From an uncultured Lacinutrix sp. (GTDB lineage: Bacteria > Bacteroidota > Bacteroidia > Flavobacteriales > Flavobacteriaceae): a stretch of 64,000 nt of DNA. The DNA lies in the NCBI GenBank assembly GCA_937129145.1, contig CAKZMU010000009.1, forward strand, positions 80,551 through 144,550, given 5' to 3'. The number at the start of each line of letters is the position of its first letter. Positions within the stretch are counted from its first letter, which is position 1. Position numbers and translations under genes: made by a program. The notes under the pieces are model-generated. The model was not told the DNA's origin and made no database searches. It saw only the letters and a program-made list of their open reading frames with translations. This document shows, one piece after another, positions 3,464-61,773 of this stretch.

Positions 3464-5232
3464 AAATGAAGTCTAAGCTCCTTATAATTACATTCTTAAT
3501 TACCTGTTTTGCTTCAGCACAAGTTACTTTTGAAGCGAAAGTCAGCAAGAAAAAATTAGGCATAAACGAGCGTTTACGCATTGATTTTGTGATGAATAAG
3601 GATGGCGATAACTTCACGCCACCTAGTTTTGAAAATTTTACTATTGTGGGTGGACCAAGTCAAACCATAAGCACACAATGGCTAAACGGCGTTAAAAAAT
3701 CTTCAAAAACGTTTAGCTACTTCTTAGCACCAAAAAAAAGAGGAAAATTCACTATTGGTCAATCTACTATAGAAATTGATGGTGAAATCTACAAAACAGT
3801 CCCTGTTACTATAGAGGTGACTGCTGCTATAGACAAACCAAAAGACCCTAACGACCCTAATTATATTGCTTCCCAAAGCATCCATTTGGTTGCCGAAGTC
3901 TCTAAAACCAATCCTTATTTAAACGAGGCTATTACAGTAGTTTACAAGCTCTATATTTCGCCAAATACAGGCGTTGAAACATGGCGAGAACTGGACAATC
4001 CTAGATATACCGATTTTTGGAGTCAGAATATAAATGTAAAAGAATTAAAGCTAATCCCAAGTAAATATAAAGGTGAAGATTATAGATATGTAGTATTAAG
4101 AAAAACTGTGTTATACCCTCAAAAAACAGGGAAGTTAAATATTGAACCTTTAACTTTAGATGTTAAAGTACAAGTGCCAACCAATAGACGTGATATTTTT
4201 GGAAGTAGGATGGTGAAAATGGTAAGTCGTACGGTTGCAGCAGGCAATAGAACAATTAATGTAAAGCCATTACCTGAAGCTGGGAAGCCATTGGGTTTTT
4301 CAGGAGCTGTTGGGGATTTTGACTTTGAGGTATCTACAAATAAAAGTAAGTTAAAAGCGACCGAGGCATTACAAGCTACAATAAAAGTATCTGGGAAAGG
4401 GAATTTAAAATTGTTTGAGCTTCCTAAATTAACATTGCCAAGTTCATTGGAAGTGTATGAACCAGAACACAGCGAAAAAGTATCCACAAACTTATCGGGA
4501 ATGCAAGGTCAAATAGCCGATAATTATACCATAGTACCTTCCTTTCAAGGAAAATACCCAATACCAAGTGTGTCGTTTTCATATTTTGACTTAAAAACGA
4601 AAAGGTATAAAACAATCACATCAGACGAAATTGTTATAAATGTCAACGAAGGTCCAATTAACAATAGTGCTGAACGCAACGACAATAATTCAAACCTTAC
4701 AAAGCAGCCTATTACGCAATCTGGAGGACAATTTCTATCGTTTAAAACAACAACAAAGTTCATTCCTAAAGAATCTTCGTATTTCTTTAAATCACGATTA
4801 TTTTGGATATTGTTGTTAGTGCCTTTTTTAATGATACCGCTGGCAATTTTCTTAAGACATAAAAAAGAAGAAAGAGACGGTGATGTTGTTGGAAACAAGA
4901 TTAGAGCAGCCAATAAATTAGCACGCAAATACTTGGGTGAGGCTAAAAAATCTTTAGGCAATAAAGAACAGTTTTATAACGCATTGGAACGTGCTTTACA
5001 TAATTATCTAAAAGCCAAACTGAATATTGAAACGAGTGACTTTAGTAAAGATAAAATTGAAGATTTATTAGCGAATAAATCTGTAAATAAAGATTCTATA
5101 GCAGAGTTTATTGATTTATTAAAAAGTTGCGAATTGGCTAGATATACGCCATTTACAAATGTAGAAATGCAACAGGATTATACTAAGGCATCACAAGTAA
5201 TATCTATTATTGACAAACAAATAAGACGATAA
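3457..5232 (+). CDS. batD: BatD (oxygen-tolerance protein; signal peptide, one C-terminal TM)
   Basis: ~590 aa with an N-terminal signal, a TM near aa 455 followed by a cytoplasmic helical tail; position in the operon. Confidence 0.8.
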   Translation: MVKMKSKLLIITFLITCFASAQVTFEAKVSKKKLGINERLRIDFVMNKDGDNFTPPSFENFTIVGGPSQTISTQWLNGVKKSSKTFSYFLAPKKRGKFTIGQSTIEIDGEIYKTVPVTIEVTAAIDKPKDPNDPNYIASQSIHLVAEVSKTNPYLNEAITVVYKLYISPNTGVETWRELDNPRYTDFWSQNINVKELKLIPSKYKGEDYRYVVLRKTVLYPQKTGKLNIEPLTLDVKVQVPTNRRDIFGSRMVKMVSRTVAAGNRTINVKPLPEAGKPLGFSGAVGDFDFEVSTNKSKLKATEALQATIKVSGKGNLKLFELPKLTLPSSLEVYEPEHSEKVSTNLSGMQGQIADNYTIVPSFQGKYPIPSVSFSYFDLKTKRYKTITSDEIVINVNEGPINNSAERNDNNSNLTKQPITQSGGQFLSFKTTTKFIPKESSYFFKSRLFWILLLVPFLMIPLAIFLRHKKEERDGDVVGNKIRAANKLARKYLGEAKKSLGNKEQFYNALERALHNYLKAKLNIETSDFSKDKIEDLLANKSVNKDSIAEFIDLLKSCELARYTPFTNVEMQQDYTKASQVISIIDKQIRR

Positions 5233-28951: not shown

Positions 28952-29497
28952 TTGAATAAAACAAACATGGAAAATAATTTACACAACAACTATGTCTTTA
29001 AAGCTATGGACGCATATCCATACGAGCTTGAAGAAACATTGGAAGCATTAAACTATGCTTTATCATATAACAATAAAGATGCGCAAGCATTATGCTTAAT
29101 GGGACGTGTTTATGCTGAACAATTAAAAGATTACGAAACAGCTAAACAATATTTTGCTGAAGCTATTGCGCAACACATGGAAATGCCAAAAACATATCCA
29201 TTTTATATCCAAACTTTATTATGGAATGGTGATTATGAAGAAGCAGATAAATTAATAACATTTGGACTAACTGTAAAGGGTACTGACAAAGCTTTATTAC
29301 AATTATTACAAGGTATTCTTTTTGAAAAACAGGGGGATTTTAAGGCTGCTATCAAGGCATATAAAAAAGCTAATAAAACAGCAACAAACAACTGCTTTAT
29401 TGAATATGTGAATAATGAAATATCTAGGGTTAAAAAGAAAATGGACCCCAGAAAGAAGAAGAAAAAGAAGTCTAACAAAAAAAGAAAGGGGAAATAA
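28952..29497 (+). CDS. TPR-like hypothetical protein with a poly-lysine C-terminus
   Basis: 181-aa ORF; TPR-like helices; KKKKKKSNKKRKGK tail. Confidence 0.5.
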   Translation: MNKTNMENNLHNNYVFKAMDAYPYELEETLEALNYALSYNNKDAQALCLMGRVYAEQLKDYETAKQYFAEAIAQHMEMPKTYPFYIQTLLWNGDYEEADKLITFGLTVKGTDKALLQLLQGILFEKQGDFKAAIKAYKKANKTATNNCFIEYVNNEISRVKKKMDPRKKKKKKSNKKRKGK

Positions 29498-29529: not shown

Positions 29530-29613
29530 GGGAACTCGTCAACGTTGGAGAGTTGGTGCAGATTGTAAACCTGTTGCTTAAATGCTAAGAAAGTTCGAAT
29601 CTTTCAGTTCCCA
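29530..29613 (+). tRNA. tRNA-Tyr(GTA), class II (long variable arm)
   Basis: Acceptor GGGAACT/AGTTCCC, anticodon loop ttGTAaa, variable stem-loop cttaAATGCtaag, T-arm GAAAGttcgaatCTTTC; one A·C mismatch in the anticodon stem. Confidence 0.7.
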
Positions 29614-29627
29614 CAAATAAATAGATT

Positions 29628-29700
29628 GACAAGGTGGCTGAACGGTTAAGGCAACAGACTGCAAATCTGTTTTTTGTGAGTTCAAATCTCACCCTTGTCT
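29628..29700 (+). tRNA. tRNA-Cys(GCA)
   Basis: Acceptor GACAAGG/CCTTGTC, anticodon arm ACAGActGCAaaTCTGT, T-arm GTGAGttcaaatCTCAC. Confidence 0.85.
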
Positions 29701-29706
29701 CAAAAT

Positions 29707-29779
29707 AGTATCGTAGCTCAATGGCTAGAGCGCTCGGTTGTCTCCCGAGAAGTTGCGGGTTCGAATCTCGTCGGTACTG
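29707..29779 (+). tRNA. tRNA-Asp(GTC), noncanonical (A1:U72, U37)
   Basis: Acceptor AGTATCG/CGGTACT, D arm GCTCaatggctaGAGC, anticodon arm CTCGGttGTCtcCCGAG, T-arm GCGGGttcgaatCTCGT. Confidence 0.65.
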
Positions 29780-29780
29780 C

Positions 29781-29844
29781 GAAGCAGTTTAAGAGATGAG
29801 AAGTTTACCCTGAGCGTAGTCGAAGGGAATCTTGTCGGTACTGC
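29781..29844 (+). repeat. 46-nt conserved spacer module (…AAGAGATGAGAAGTTTAccCTGAGCGtAGTCGAAGg) followed by an 18-nt direct repeat (17/18 identical) of the tRNA-Asp T-loop-to-3'-end segment
   Basis: gaatctCgtcggtactgc at 29763–29780 recurs as gaatctTgtcggtactgc at 29827–29844; the intervening module is ~85–90% identical to the one at 30183–30226. Confidence 0.8.
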
Positions 29845-29848
29845 AAAT

Positions 29849-29931
29849 CTGGGAGGATAATCCCGAAGGTTCGGGAGTGGTTTACTCGCTTTGGAAGCGA
29901 GAGGTTGTAGGTTCAAATCCTACCTCTCAGA
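29849..29931 (+). tRNA. tRNA-Pro(TGG)-like gene with an aberrant 29-nt D region; possibly a pseudogene
   Basis: Acceptor CTGGGAG/CTCTCAG (one G·U pair), perfect anticodon arm CTCGCttTGGaaGCGAG, perfect T arm GTAGGttcaaatCCTAC. The D region is ~10 nt too long and contains the hairpin TCCCGAaggtTCGGGA. Confidence 0.45.
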
Positions 29932-29937
29932 CAAAAT

Positions 29938-30009
29938 ACTCCGTTAGTCAAATGGCTAAGACGCCTGACTTTCTATCAGGAATTAAGGGTTCAATTCCCT
30001 TACGGAGTA
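29938..30009 (+). tRNA. tRNA-Glu(TTC), noncanonical (A1:U72, U37)
   Basis: Acceptor ACTCCGT/ACGGAGT, anticodon arm CCTGActTTCtaTCAGG, T arm AAGGGttcaattCCCTT. Confidence 0.65.
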
Positions 30010-30014
30010 CACAT

Positions 30015-30100
30015 TGAGATATAGCTTAATTGGTAGAGCGTCGCTCTCATAAGGCGAATGGTTTAGGTTCTCCCGATAGTTATCGGGACTAATATCTCAA
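30015..30100 (+). tRNA. tRNA-Met/Ile2(CAT)-like gene with an 18-nt hairpin insertion in the T loop; possibly a pseudogene
   Basis: Acceptor TGAGATA/TATCTCA, D arm GCTTaattggtaGAGC, anticodon arm TCGCTctCATaaGGCGA. The T region is TTAG-gttc-[TCCCGATAgtTATCGGGA]-CTAA. Confidence 0.45.
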
Positions 30101-30106
30101 CAACAC

Positions 30107-30179
30107 GCAGGAATGGCGAAACGGCAAACGCACTCGACTTAGAATCGAGAAACTGGGAGTTCGAATCTCTCTTCCTGTA
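30107..30179 (+). tRNA. Class-I (short variable arm) tRNA with Leu anticodon TAG
   Basis: Acceptor GCAGGAA/TTCCTGT, D arm GCGaaacggcaaaCGC, anticodon arm CTCGActTAGaaTCGAG, variable region aaact, T arm GGGAGttcgaatCTCTC, A73. Confidence 0.55.
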
Positions 30180-30182
30180 CGA

Positions 30183-30246
30183 AGTAAGGAAAGAGATGAG
30201 AAGTTTATGCTGAGCGAAGTCGAAGTGAATCTCTCTTCCTGTACGA
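30183..30246 (+). repeat. 44-nt conserved spacer module followed by a perfect 20-nt direct repeat of the upstream tRNA's T-loop-to-3'-end segment
   Basis: gaatctctcttcctgtacga at 30163–30182 and again at 30227–30246; the module agtaaggaAAGAGATGAGAAGTTTAtgCTGAGCGaAGTCGAAGt is homologous to 29781–29826. Confidence 0.85.
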
Positions 30247-30247
30247 T

Positions 30248-30321
30248 GCTCCACTAGCCCAAATGGAAGAGGCAACAGTTTTAAGCGCTGTTAAGTCCAA
30301 GTTCGAATCTTGGGTGGAGTA
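30248..30321 (+). tRNA. Class-I tRNA with Leu anticodon TAA
   Basis: Acceptor GCTCCAC/GTGGAGT (G1·U72), anticodon arm ACAGTttTAAgcGCTGT, variable region taagt, T arm CCAAGttcgaatCTTGG, A73. Confidence 0.5.
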
Positions 30322-30327
30322 CAAAAT

Positions 30328-30451
30328 AAGCTTATGGTGTAATGGAAAGCACACAAGGTTTAGCTCATGCATATCTATTTCAAGAAATAGGTATTCGTGA
30401 ATGCAAAGCATTTCGAACCTTGGAGTATGGGTTCAAGTCCTATTAAGCTTA
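30328..30451 (+). tRNA. 124-nt tRNA-like gene carrying a ~52-nt structured insertion in the anticodon loop
   Basis: Acceptor AAGCTTA/TAAGCTT, D arm GTGTaatggaaaGCAC, anticodon stem CAAGG…CCTTG separated by 59 nt, T arm ATGGGttcaagtCCTAT. Mature anticodon TAG if spliced at 37/38, TCG if at 33/34. Confidence 0.45.
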
Positions 30452-30456
30452 CAAAA

Positions 30457-30527
30457 TAACCTGTGGTGTAACGGTAACACTCAAGATTTTGATTCTTGTA
30501 TTATAGGTTCGAATCCTATCAGGTTAT
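30457..30527 (+). tRNA. tRNA-Gln(TTG)
   Basis: U1:A72 acceptor TAACCTG/CAGGTTA, D arm GTGTaacggtaACAC, anticodon arm CAAGAttTTGatTCTTG, T arm ATAGGttcgaatCCTAT. Confidence 0.8.
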
Positions 30528-30535
30528 CAAAAAAT

Positions 30536-30608
30536 GGAACAGTAGCAAAGTTGGTCAATGCGTCGGACTGAAAATCTGAAAATACAGGTTCAATTCCTGT
30601 CTGTTCCA
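30536..30608 (+). tRNA. tRNA-Phe(GAA)
   Basis: Acceptor GGAACAG/CTGTTCC, anticodon arm TCGGActGAAaaTCTGA, T arm ACAGGttcaattCCTGT. Confidence 0.85.
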
Positions 30609-30621
30609 CTAAAATTAAAGA

Positions 30622-30639
30622 TTCCTGCCTATGCAGGAA
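30622..30639 (+). other. Perfect 7-bp hairpin TTCCTGCctatGCAGGAA inside the array; the agattcctgc motif recurs at 31045–31056
   Basis: Inverted repeat read directly; no T-tract follows, so it is not a canonical terminator. Confidence 0.4.
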
Positions 30640-30767
30640 ATAATATCAAGCTGGTCTTGTTGAGTGTTTCGGTATAGCACTATTGTATAAATCGTTGCAG
30701 AAATGCATCATGAGTTTATGTTCAACTAGACTTGAAGGTTTTGACTGTTAACCAAAAAATGGTCTCC

Positions 30768-30843
30768 CCCTATAGGTCGTGGGTTCGACTCCCACTTATC
30801 CCAATTGGGATAGTAGTTCAGTGGTTAGAACAATAGGATGTAG
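30768..30843 (+). tRNA. Apparently circularly permuted tRNA gene: 3' half (nt 38–73), 3-nt linker, then 5' half (nt 1–37); the mature anticodon would be GTA
   Basis: 3' half: c-CCTAT-aggtc-GTGGGttcgactCCCAC-TTATCCC-a. Linker att. 5' half: GGGATAG-ta-GTTCagtggttaGAAC-a-ATAGG-atGTAg. The acceptor pairs over 7 bp and the anticodon stem ATAGG/CCTAT pairs over 5 bp. Confidence 0.45.
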
Positions 30844-30888
30844 GTGTTGCTGGTTCGATTCCAGTCGTTTGCTTGGAGAAATTCCTTG

Positions 30889-30948
30889 GCAATAGTAGCT
30901 CAATTGGTAGAGCACTGCACTTTTAATGCAGGTTTGGACTCAAAATCC
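30889..30948 (+). pseudogene. Truncated tRNA-Lys(TTT)-like 5' portion with a degenerate T arm and no 3' acceptor strand
   Basis: GCAATAG-ta-GCTCaattggtaGAGC-a-CTGCActTTTaaTGCAG-gttt, then only a 3-bp GGA/TCC stem; no complementary 3' acceptor strand nearby. Confidence 0.4.
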
Positions 30949-30988
30949 ACAATCAAAAGCCCATCATCTTTTAAAACTGATGACCAAC

Positions 30989-31450: not shown

Positions 31451-32551
31451 ATGATGAAACGAGTAAGAATTAATGTTGGAGAAGTAGGATTGGTTTTCAA
31501 AAGAGGTGATTACAAAAGAGTAATTACTCAAGGAAAAAACTGGTTAGGGTTTGGCGAGCGTGTTTTAACCTATAACTTAGCTCATGCTTTCGTTGCTCCA
31601 AAAACACTAGAACTCTTGCTAAAAGACGAGGTGTTGGAGGCAATGTTAGACATTATTGAAGTAAAGGATGGTGAACTTGTATTGGTTTACGAAAAAGGGA
31701 GCTTTAAAACTGTTTTAACTGCTGGTCGTTATGTGTACTGGAAGGGTTTGATTAATCGTGAATATACACGCGTTGATTTAAGCAAAATTTATATTACTGA
31801 AAACATTGACAAAGCATTGTTTAGTAACTATGAATTAAGCAAATACATTCGAGTTTTTGAAGTAGCTGCTTACGAAAAAGCTATCCTTTTGGTAGATGAT
31901 GTATATACAAAGACGCTTGACGGCGGTACATACCGATTCTGGAGAAATGATACCACAATTAAAATTGCTAAGGCTGATTTACGTCAGTTACAACTAGAAA
32001 TTGCTGGACAAGAATTGTTAACTAAAGATAAAGCAGCTATTCGTATCAACTTTTACACACAGTATAAAGTAACAGATATTGAAAAGGCTTTACTAGGAAA
32101 CAAAGATTATGAAAAGCAATTATACATTGCTATGCAATTGGTATTGCGCGCTTACATTGGTACTTACACACTAGATGAATTGCTAGAGCGTAAAGAAAAC
32201 ATTGCAGAAGCTGTATTTGAAGATGTTAAAGCAAGTGCATCAAAATTAGGTGTAAGCGTTTTAAGCTGCGGTATTAGAGATGTGATTTTAACCGGAGATA
32301 TGAAAGAGATTATGAACCAGGTTTTAGTTGCACAAAAGAAAGCGCAAGCAAATACAATTACAAGACGTGAAGAAACAGCTTCTACTCGTAGCTTGCTAAA
32401 TACGGCAAAGTTGATGGAAGAGAATAACATGCTGTACAAGCTAAAAGAAATGGAGTATGTTGAAAAAATCGCTGAGAAAATTGGTGAAATCACAGTCTCA
32501 GGTAATGGTGGAATGGTAACACAATTGAAAGAGATTTTCTCTGGAAAATAA
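31451..32551 (+). CDS. SPFH/band-7 (slipin-like) domain protein
   Basis: 366 aa; C-terminal SPFH-like region with a coiled coil (VLVAQKKAQANTITRREETA…). Confidence 0.65.
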   Translation: MMKRVRINVGEVGLVFKRGDYKRVITQGKNWLGFGERVLTYNLAHAFVAPKTLELLLKDEVLEAMLDIIEVKDGELVLVYEKGSFKTVLTAGRYVYWKGLINREYTRVDLSKIYITENIDKALFSNYELSKYIRVFEVAAYEKAILLVDDVYTKTLDGGTYRFWRNDTTIKIAKADLRQLQLEIAGQELLTKDKAAIRINFYTQYKVTDIEKALLGNKDYEKQLYIAMQLVLRAYIGTYTLDELLERKENIAEAVFEDVKASASKLGVSVLSCGIRDVILTGDMKEIMNQVLVAQKKAQANTITRREETASTRSLLNTAKLMEENNMLYKLKEMEYVEKIAEKIGEITVSGNGGMVTQLKEIFSGK

Positions 32552-61596: not shown

Positions 61597-61699
61597 TATG
61601 AATTTTAGTTGGTTGTGATTGAAAAATACTTGCTCTAAGGTAAAGAAAAATATAACGAAGAAAAAAGCCTCTCATTTCTGAAAGGCTTGTGTTTAAAAG

Positions 61700-61773
61700 T
61701 GGTCCCACTTGGGCTCGAACCAAGGACCCTCTGATTATGAGTCAGATGCTCTAACCAACTGAGCTATGGGACC
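61700..61773 (-). tRNA. tRNA-Met(CAT) (elongator Met or Ile2-lysidine type; not distinguishable by eye)
   Basis: The reverse complement GGTCCCATAGCTCAGTTGGTTAGAGCATCTGACTCATAATCAGAGGGTCCTTGGTTCGAGCCCAAGTGGGACCA is a canonical cloverleaf with anticodon loop ctCATaa. Confidence 0.85.

Follow-up and report, generated by a model that had tools for sequence, protein, structure and literature searches.

Short palindromes occupy tRNA loops in a supernumerary tRNA array of an uncultured Lacinutrix sp., and one of them is dispersed in Bacteroidota phage contigs

Two neighboring genes of a tRNA array in an uncultured Lacinutrix sp., one Pro-like and one Met-like, carry hairpins with the same stem in place of native loop bases, and both have lost recognizability as tRNA genes. 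They were found in a 64-kb stretch of DNA, referred to as the window. On balance, we consider it probable that a mini-palindrome acting at the level of DNA overwrote the loops of redundant array tRNA genes, settling in hairpin loops that are single-stranded. Since the sister palindrome is also scattered in Bacteroidota phage genomes, the Pro-like gene is most likely a spare copy disabled by a tiny repeat. The occurrence of tiny palindromes and mini-elements in flavobacterial tRNA arrays and in phage hairpin loops appears to be an undescribed pattern; a literature search, carried out also with the sequences themselves, found no precedent for mini-palindromes lodged in loops. The features of the window that are relevant to the analysis are the following.

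28952 to 29497: TPR gene, flanking the array
29530 to 30960, + strand: supernumerary tRNA array between the TPR gene and the SPFH/Band_7 gene (ARAGORN and Rfam, with Pfam on the flanks)
29849 to 29931, + strand: tRNA-Pro(TGG)-like gene whose D region is expanded to 29 nt; its acceptor, anticodon and T arms and its variable region are intact
29861 to 29876, no strand assigned: H16 palindrome TCCCGAAGGTTCGGGA, 6-bp stem and 4-nt loop, in the D region of the Pro-like gene
30015 to 30100, + strand: tRNA-Met(CAT)-like gene with the sister palindrome in its T loop (Rfam tRNA model, 30.6 bits, partial)
30071 to 30088, no strand assigned: H18-type palindrome TCCCGATAGTTATCGGGA in the T loop of the Met-like gene, 210 nt downstream of the Pro-like hairpin
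30329 to 30452: Arg-like gene with a ~50-nt element in its anticodon loop (about 30361 to 30412), in the opposite orientation
31451 to 32551: SPFH/Band_7 gene, just downstream of the array

Results

The hairpin-bearing genes

Outside its D region, the Pro-like gene has the parts of a tRNA. The acceptor strands CTGGGAG (29849-29855) and CTCTCAG (29924-29930) form 7 bp with one G·U, and together with the discriminator A29931 they provide the C1-G72 pair and A73 of the canonical-type acceptor of bacterial tRNA-Pro(UGG). The anticodon arm, CTCGC-TTTGGAA-GCGAG, is perfect, with a 5-bp stem and a 7-nt loop that includes U33 and UGG; the variable region, AGGTT, is 5 nt long; and the T arm, GTAGG-TTCAAAT-CCTAC, is also perfect, with the canonical 5-bp stem and TTCRANY loop. 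The interval between the acceptor and the anticodon stem (29856-29884) measures 29 nt and consists of GATAA, TCCCGA, AGGT, TCGGGA and GTGGTTTA. A canonical D arm, with 3-4 bp, a loop of 7-11 nt and connectors of 2 nt and 1 nt, is not found there. Instead, the H16 hairpin is preceded by 5 unpaired nucleotides and followed by 8 (13 extra). The original prediction had described this structure (the acceptor, the 29-nt interval, the hairpin of 6 bp and 4 nt and the perfect arms) from the letters alone, and all of its counts were right on re-reading; the related hairpin that it placed in the T loop of the Met-like gene is indeed present at 30071-30088.

The predicted RNA fold of the Pro-like gene keeps the cloverleaf and adds the 6-bp hairpin (-32.2 kcal/mol, z = -3.0), and none of 200 shuffled sequences was equally stable. 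ARAGORN made no call on the native gene, and the Rfam tRNA model matched it with 36.3 bits over 29871-29931 only, in an alignment that used TCGGGAG (from 29871) as a surrogate 5′ acceptor strand and skipped the D arm. A profile of the array Pro genes matched the gene over its full length in an nhmmer search (E = 5e-19). ARAGORN called tRNA-Pro(TGG) after 10 to 16 nt of the hairpin were removed, and the call obtained upon removal of the whole hairpin was a 68-nt D-armless Pro.

In the Met-like gene the T-loop motif is destroyed outright by the sister hairpin, TCCCGATAGTTATCGGGA, which differs at one position from the dispersed 18-nt consensus TCCCGATAGCTATCGGGA. ARAGORN called tRNA-Met only when the hairpin was swapped for GATTC, the sequence of the canonical ortholog, and made no call when the 18 nt were exactly deleted. 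The arrangement TCCCGA-N(2-10)-TCGGGA occurred in the 64-kb window at two places only, the Pro-like and Met-like genes, with 0.00 copies expected from 100 shuffles, and a search of the window for degenerate copies with up to three mismatches found none beyond these two. A separate tRNA-Met(CAT) gene is located elsewhere in the window, at 61699-61773.

Comparison with canonical orthologs

The closest relative found, Gaetbulibacter sp. S0825 (locus L003), has canonical Pro (4621-4693), Met (4777-4850) and Arg(ACG) (5012-5084) genes that occupy the same array positions as the units of the window. The Pro backbone of the window, that is, the gene outside the D region, differs from that of L003 at 4 of 64 positions. 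When the window gene was aligned to 37 array Pro genes, its D loop read TAA-TCCCGAAGGTTCGGGAGTG-GTTTA where the array genes read TAA-CGRTGGTT-GTTTA. The native loop of L003 is TAA-CGATGGTT-GTTTA, and H16 with the following GTG stands in place of CGATGGTT, turning 8 nt into 19 nt. Similarly, the T loop of the Met gene reads GGTTC-GATTC-CTAA in L003 and GGTTC-TCCCGATAGTTATCGGGA-CTAA in the window, a change from 5 to 18 nt. The canonical L003 orthologs therefore indicated that the hairpins replaced loop bases in the Pro and Met genes of the window. Precise removal of the palindromes restores no canonical gene because the loop bases were replaced rather than cleanly inserted into. The native Pro loop CGATGGTT and the center of H16, CGAAGGTT, are identical at 7 of 8 positions, a likeness that may have guided a templated event in this D loop.

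The array and its chromosomal setting

The array comprises, in order, Tyr-like, Cys, Asp, Pro-like, Glu, Met-like, Leu(TAG), Leu(TAA), Arg-like, Gln and Phe units, and ends after Phe with Y-RNA-like and tRNA-like units. ARAGORN called the Cys, Asp, Glu, Leu(TAG), Leu(TAA), Gln and Phe genes, and the gaps between its calls correspond to the Pro-like, Met-like and Arg-like units. All units are on the same strand, separated by spacers of 3-7 nt, with about 13 units in 1.1 kb of a 2-kb intergenic space, and the genes do not encode CCA. The Band_7 protein encoded just downstream is 92% identical to that of Gaetbulibacter sp. S0825 and 84-88% identical to those of Jejuia, Wocania, Winogradskyella, Seonamhaeicola and Hyunsoonleella, which places the organism in the Flavobacteriaceae; a search for a conspecific genome found none, the best Band_7 identities being 91-92%. 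Of 82 genome loci, 54 have an array with the same gene order upstream of their Band_7 ortholog, as do many metagenome loci, and the content of the array among relatives ranges from 0 to about 17 genes. Dense, on one strand, with duplicated isoacceptors and variable among relatives, the array is supernumerary, conserved yet dispensable, and is found at the same syntenic site in many Flavobacteriaceae genera.

The window has the characteristics of a low-GC bacterial chromosome with ordinary housekeeping genes. A phage origin was considered and rejected, the flanking genes being chromosomal (RecJ, UvrD-like, MATE, SPFH) with no close phage match. Gaps of 1 kb that interrupt some arrays were found to hold an unrelated, membrane-transporter-like ORF on the other strand. 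No partner protein for the hairpin is encoded in the array or in the adjoining genes.

The palindrome family in other arrays

In at least 14 genomes, a hairpin with the same stem has taken the place of a D loop, a T loop or an entire T arm, the host genes being Pro, Met, Arg, Leu and Asp. Beyond the window and Hyunsoonleella pacifica (L016), at least 12 arrays have such hairpins in T loops of Pro, Arg, Leu and Asp genes or in place of their complete T arms. The stem of the family is TCCCGR/YCGGGA and the lengths are 16 or 18 nt, H16 being TCCCGAAG(G/T)TTCGGGA and H18 being TCCCGATAG(C/T)TATCGGGA. Both are near-perfect full palindromes, and each recurs unchanged across distant taxa and in different host genes.

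A D-loop allele with the same junctions as that of the window was found in the Pro gene of H. pacifica (L016, 4250), where it reads GAA-TCCCGAAGTTTCGGGAGTA-GCTTA; its hairpin loop, AGTT, has lost one G in comparison with the AGGT of the window. A strict pattern for this allele had 0 matches in metagenomes. Between the two loci the insert differs at 2 of 19 positions and the backbone at 13 of 64, with a stem that is 100% conserved, so that the distribution of the allele does not follow that of the backbone. Recombination or recurrent site-directed events may account for its presence in both loci.

T-loop hairpins are found in the Met-like gene of the window, in Pro genes (L152, L157), in a Leu-TAG gene (L160) and in Arg-ACG genes (L022, L058). 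The junction is always right after GTTC or GTTCG, and the next bases are lost. The exact H16 16-mer is present in T loops of L157 (Pro) and L058 (Arg), and consensus copies of H18 in T loops of L152 (Pro) and L160 (Leu-TAG) and in the T arm of an Asp-like gene (L026). The whole T arm is replaced in five Asp-like genes of Aquimarina (L025, L026, L032, L042 and L077) and in one Pro-like gene (L037). Apart from the exchange of GAATC for the palindrome, only one position separates the Pro genes of L152 and L157 from canonical Pro genes found at other loci (L154, L031), and for this reason the two events look recent. Some hosts are decaying: in L077 the 5′ half of the gene is degenerate and the hairpin is still a perfect 8 bp, and in L016 the anticodon stem has one mismatch.

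Among the perfect 6-bp hairpins of the arrays located outside called tRNAs, TCCCGA was the only frequent stem that varied in loop and context; the remaining frequent stems have loops that are almost the same from copy to copy, as expected of orthologs of a single site. In 1.58 Mb of chromosomal loci H18 was found five times (exact or with one mismatch), four times in tRNA-like genes of the arrays and once beside a tRNA 3′ fragment. A GIY-YIG nuclease gene adjoins one H18 copy (L065), a link that was dropped as a single case. The search for a longer parent element with TCCCGA...TCGGGA ends found none; it returned only a T-loop hairpin of about 45 nt, with arms of a similar kind (CCCGCC/GGCGGG), in three Aquimarina loci. 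No target duplication, transposase or donor copy was identified for the palindromes.

Other small insertions in the array

Palindromes are accompanied in the arrays by a ~50-nt element, GGTTCGA-AATGCnnnGCATTCACGAA...GAGYT-AATCC, which is present in the T loops of many array genes. The copy in the Arg-like gene of the window is inverted and occupies the anticodon loop. Read on the minus strand, the anticodon arm of Arg(ACG) is CAAGG-TTCG..-CCTTG and looks like a T arm, and the reverse-complemented anticodon-loop copies (window, L044, L049 and the Glu gene of L016) align over their full length with the T-loop copies. The orientation of the element thus follows the DNA target, which argues for insertion at the DNA level and against introns acting at the RNA level, and the element supports the picture of small loop-seeking elements that survive in redundant tRNA genes.

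A 47-nt element found after tRNA-Asp and tRNA-Leu duplicates the tRNA 3′ end. Its consensus fold consists only of a stem with the 3′ part of the tRNA and a small inner hairpin; a ribozyme identity was rejected, since the cores of hammerhead and hairpin ribozymes did not fit and Rfam gave no match at E values up to 10. The Y-RNA-like units at the array end combine a T arm and a D arm with a closed hairpin that resembles an acceptor, and in L004, L043, L071 and L129 this closed hairpin is TCCCGA-N4-TCGGGA.

H18 in phage contigs

A scan of IMG/VR viral contigs for H18, as TCCCGATAGCTATCGGGA, gave 55 exact sites distributed over 46 stretches. The size of the collection, about 8e10 bases, predicts ~1 site, and the palindrome is consequently enriched about 50-fold. 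Up to five or more copies are present in one Mu-like phage contig. The contigs rich in H18 are those of Mu-like phages (Mu F, Mu portal, terminase), and by terminase they come closest to phages of Flavobacterium, Winogradskyella and Bacteroides. The scan of the same contigs for the H16 16-mer gave 74 single, mostly unrelated matches, which is the chance level, and dispersal of H16 outside tRNA arrays is not supported. Patterns for the T-loop element, for the T loop plus H18 and for the T loop plus H16 all had 0 matches in viral contigs. The search for the palindrome elsewhere hence revealed a dispersed repeat in the case of H18 (55 viral sites against ~1) and not in that of H16, found at chance level, with two copies of the palindrome in the 64 kb of the window.

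The copies of H18 occupy the loops of terminator-like hairpins (for example, aaaacccg-H18-cgggttttttt) and the centers of other palindromic repeats, are nested in partial copies of H18 itself, or are located ~30 nt upstream of three diverged reverse-transcriptase genes of the diversity-generating retroelement (DGR) type (L170, L193, L212). In L174 it stands in place of the D loop in a tRNA-Met(CAT)-like gene that ARAGORN called only after the palindrome was trimmed. In 18% of 44 distinct contexts the two flanks of H18 could pair over 5 bp or more, compared with 2% of random positions. These results showed H18 to be a repeat scattered over Bacteroidota phage contigs and overrepresented in hairpin loops. 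A small palindromic element able to lodge in tRNA loops, as originally predicted, agrees with the presence of the same stem in at least 14 genomes, with the canonical orthologs and with the H18 copy in the D loop of L174. Specificity for tRNA loops is not supported, given that H18 is also found within terminator-like hairpins, other repeats and copies of itself, and ahead of the DGR-type genes.

Discussion

The mechanism that we favor is a DNA process, templated or resembling transposition, that would place copies of the palindromes in the single-stranded loops of hairpins; the mobility of the palindromes is inferred from their distribution only. A transcript bearing the hairpin would be unable to form the elbow between the D loop and the T loop and, as a consequence, would probably not be a working tRNA. 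As the array copies are redundant, such loop damage would be tolerated and the alleles would persist in the array.

The strongest competitor, which we nevertheless regard as rather unlikely, is that the hairpin is a selected structural module and that array tRNAs with capped D or T loops are functional tRNA-like RNAs; candidate roles are tRNase-resistant decoys or backups, regulators, or carriers of a protein-binding site formed by the UCCCGR/YCGGGA stem. Selection would explain a stem that, in many genomes with variable loops and flanks, either stays constant or changes in a compensatory manner (the sixth pair from A-T to C-G), an insert that differs less than the backbone between the window and L016 (2/19 against 13/64), acceptor, anticodon and T stems that are still paired in most hairpin-bearing genes, the same stem closing the acceptor-like hairpin of the Y-RNA-like units in related arrays, and the fixed place of H18 upstream of the three DGR-type genes. 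However, the same 18-mer is found in terminator loops, in other repeats and nested in itself, which is the behavior of a repeat and not of a dedicated tRNA module. In addition, the closest relatives have canonical genes or no gene at all, some hosts are in decay (the anticodon-stem mismatch of L016 and the degenerate 5′ half of L077), and a partner protein is missing from the array and the genes that adjoin it. A tRNA-Pro(UGG) that still works, its unusually long D arm being tolerated as in tRNA-Sec, is less probable still. The 6-bp stem and 4-nt loop are those of a tRNA-Sec D arm, a parallel already drawn in the original prediction, but the likeness is superficial: the anticodon is TGG and not UCA, the fold is 7/5 and not 8/5, a variable region of 5 nt takes the place of a long variable arm, and unpaired stretches of 5 and 8 nucleotides, instead of 2 and 1, border the hairpin, so that the D arm cannot sit as it does in tRNA-Sec. 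The acceptor with C1-G72 and A73, the canonical anticodon loop and T arm, a hairpin loop (AGGT) that keeps a GG like G18-G19 and a fold more stable than all 200 shuffles are what a working tRNA would have. Against these features stand the AGTT loop of L016, in which one G is gone, the rejection of the native gene by tRNA finders and the ruined T-loop motif of the Met-like gene that carries the sister hairpin.

An intron-like RNA element that is cut out to yield a normal tRNA, the other possibility raised in the original prediction, is very improbable. The ARAGORN call of tRNA-Pro after deletion of 10-16 nt is what such an element would produce, but exact removal leaves a D-armless Pro or, in Met, a 3-nt T loop with no ARAGORN call, because native loop bases are missing; there is no bulge-helix-bulge, 16-18 nt is far below the size of a group I intron, which has a core of more than 200 nt in the anticodon loop, the same module is found in non-RNA contexts, and the companion ~50-nt element is present in both orientations. 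We give as little credence to chance or local mutation, by which two unrelated quasi-palindromes would have arisen independently in decaying pseudogenes. The array is redundant and visibly decaying in places, as that explanation would have it, yet 0.00 copies are expected in the window, identical 16- and 18-mers are found in different genes of distant taxa, and H18 is enriched about 50-fold in viral contigs.

A DNA-level repeat that overwrites loops can be compared with several known systems. Elhai et al. are said to have described, in 2008, small dispersed repeats of 21-27 nt in Nostoc that are apparently mobile. Such repeats are below MITE size, look like insertions and nest in other repeats; we know of no enzyme that mobilizes them and, to our knowledge, no lodging in tRNA loops has been described for them. 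The palindromes belong to a different phylum, differ in sequence and are even shorter. MITEs are a poorer match, since the palindromes generate no target-site duplication, target bases are deleted, and the length is 16-18 nt instead of the usual >50 nt. By analogy, the palindrome would behave most like these very small Nostoc repeats, which PMC3116915 mentions, and like REP-type palindromes. REP/REPIN sequences are short extragenic palindromes moved by RAYT transposases (PMC3116915). Shared with them are a short, GC-rich, hairpin-forming sequence, many dispersed intergenic copies (H18 only), locations near or inside terminator-like hairpins and nested arrangements (PMC3116915). Unlike REP/REPIN (PMC3116915), the palindromes, at 16-18 nt, fall short of the typical REP length and overwrite hairpin loops, including tRNA D and T loops. 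The 64 kb of chromosome contain just two copies, each of them within the tRNA array, and no RAYT gene was seen.

The host array resembles L-arrays, as generally described (PMC8421152), and tRNA array units (PMC4758250) in being a dense same-strand run, with spacers of 3-7 nt, duplicated isoacceptors and no encoded CCA, that is variable and dispensable. With 10-17 units, it falls below the 20-gene definition of a tRNA array unit (PMC4758250). In contrast to the general picture given of L-arrays (PMC8421152), it occupies one syntenic site across genera and is not sprinkled by transfer. Insertions, duplications and deletions are said in a general remark to be frequent in L-arrays (PMC8421152); going by the general description of L-arrays and tRNA array units, being riddled with small loop insertions sets the present array apart. 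The units at its end are like YrlA-type Y RNAs, bacterial tRNA mimics (PMC4201824), in their T arm, closed acceptor-like hairpin and D arm, with scores of 32.9-37.6 bits that are below the 69-bit threshold; the Pro-like gene differs from YrlA by keeping open 5′ and 3′ acceptor strands and an anticodon arm.

Archaea have non-canonical tRNA introns with a bulge-helix-bulge in D and T loops. The palindromes are also extra sequence at D-loop and T-loop positions, but they lack the bulge-helix-bulge, reside in a bacterial host, come with deletion of native bases and occur as a module in non-tRNA DNA. Intron families in Rfam gave no match over the Pro-like gene at E values up to 10.

A wider proposal, possible though doubtful, is that Bacteroidota and their phages harbor an unrecognized guild of ultra-small elements homing to DNA or RNA hairpin loops. 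Its candidate members would be the 16-18 nt palindromes, the ~50-nt T-loop element and the 47-nt element that duplicates the tRNA 3′ end. The universally conserved T-loop sequence GGTTCGA of tRNAs would be a favored target, and the hits would survive in redundant tRNA arrays. This speculative guild would need a mechanism of spread outside the known transposases, or else a hairpin that acts as the recognition module for a putative protein.

Genes such as the Pro-like and Met-like units are best annotated as disrupted array copies, and not as novel tRNA species or intron-bearing tRNAs, and they offer a clean natural experiment on how far a tRNA tolerates a capped elbow. If overwriting of loops by a DNA-level repeat is true, palindromes of 16-18 nt would be among the smallest repeats that behave like mobile DNA, and a target logic based on hairpin loops would make tRNA genes their natural victims. 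It would also explain the gaps of 70-140 nt that tRNA finders leave in flavobacterial tRNA arrays.

Additional units of the tRNA array

The array of supernumerary tRNA units contains members that tRNA finders miss or score weakly, one at its start and one near its end, and its distal part also includes Y-RNA-like (YrlA-like) units. Their locations in the window and among the compared loci (L-numbers) are as follows:

Window 29530-29614: Tyr(GTA)-like unit, array start
Window 30734-30880; L129 3901-4164; L004 5314; L043 5601; L071 5454; L062 5436: Y-RNA-like units, array end
Window 30889-30955: tRNA-like unit truncated in the T arm, after the Y-RNA-like region
L011, L018, L019, L020, L008 and L092 (array position before Phe); L007 and L006; L022: units with A34 anticodons
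L030, L031, L033, L036, L037, L045, L049, L058, L075 and L104: gaps of about 1 kb within the array

The Tyr(GTA)-like unit, which has a 7-bp acceptor (GGGAACT/AGTTCCC) and an Rfam score of 15.6 bits, is identical in L003, the Gaetbulibacter sp. S0825 locus. The truncated unit scores 30.5 bits. Conserved units in other arrays were called by ARAGORN as 'Tyr(ATA)', 'Phe(AAA)' and 'Asp(ATC)', and they recur at a constant place in the array across several genera. Such A34 anticodons are unusual for bacteria. In Aquimarina the array is interrupted by a gene on the opposite strand that encodes a multi-pass membrane protein of 284-288 amino acids, which by eye looks like a bile-acid/sodium symporter.

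The Y-RNA-like units combine a T arm with a closed acceptor-like hairpin and a D arm, arranged in a permuted order. The Rfam YrlA scores of the array-end units, 32.9 and 37.6 bits, are below the threshold of 69. The closed hairpin co-varies from species to species, and in several of them it is TCCCGA-N4-TCGGGA. No Ro/Rsr gene was seen near these units.

A conserved element behind tRNA-Asp and tRNA-Leu(TAG)

A conserved 47-nt element follows tRNA-Asp and tRNA-Leu(TAG) at these locations:

Window 29781-29843 and 30181-30243
L004 4636; L015 3853 and 4341; L024 3874; L034 3765-3958 (three copies)
L038 (two copies); L076 (two copies); L090; L093; L087; L088

The element has three parts. The first is the complement of the T-stem and acceptor 3′ strand of its own tRNA, and it co-varies between the Asp and Leu copies. 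The middle part reads GATGAGAAGTTTAyCCTGAGCnnrGTCGAAGG, and the third repeats 17-20 nt of the 3′ part of the tRNA in direct orientation, from the T loop on (GAATC...). Some genomes carry the element in tandem, and it is missing from both the Asp and the Leu sites in L003. Rfam gave no match; hammerhead and hairpin ribozymes were considered as candidates and rejected, as in our reading their cores do not fit. In L088, an IMG genome, a related form stands behind a tRNA-Lys that looks like a housekeeping one, and Pro and Cys genes are likewise trailed by analogous elements.

Elements inserted in tRNA loops and their relatives

Palindromic and longer elements were located at the following positions:

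L170 10849; L193 7749; L212 3554 (viral contigs): exact 18-nt palindrome TCCCGATAGCTATCGGGA
L025 3720; L032 1318; L037 1935: third T-loop insert, about 45 nt (GGTTC|CCTGCCCGMCACAG...GGCAGGCGGGRA)
Window 30329-30452: Arg-like gene, insert at about 30361-30412
L028 4040; L005 3981; L027 4180; L079 5005; L037 3024; L040 4244; L038 3448; L044 5103; L049 2553; L016 (Hyunsoonleella pacifica) ~4360-4440: element of about 50 nt

In the three viral contigs, which carry diverged elements, the start codon of a reverse-transcriptase gene follows the palindrome at a distance of about 30 nt. This gene was assigned from a Pfam RVT_1 match in L170, and in L193 and L212 solely from the N-terminal sequence and the start codon next to the palindrome. 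By eye, all three N-termini look DGR-type. TR/VR-like repeats are present at L170 10940-11200, and in L193 a GGCTCTTT/AAAGAGCC hairpin holds the palindrome in its loop.

The insert of about 45 nt folds as a long hairpin, with arms similar to the TCCCGCC/GGCGGGA hairpins of the same genomes, and may be related to the small palindromes as a longer version.

The Arg-like gene of the window is the ortholog of a canonical Arg(ACG) gene in L003 and carries a 52-nt insert in its anticodon loop; after removal of these 52 nt, ARAGORN calls tRNA-Arg(TCG). Reverse-complemented, the insert corresponds to the element of about 50 nt found elsewhere in T loops (GGTTCGA|AATGCnnnGCATTCACGAA...GAGYT|AATCC). Since the orientation of the element is set by a T-arm-like target, which may lie on either strand, these copies are insertions that occurred at the DNA level.
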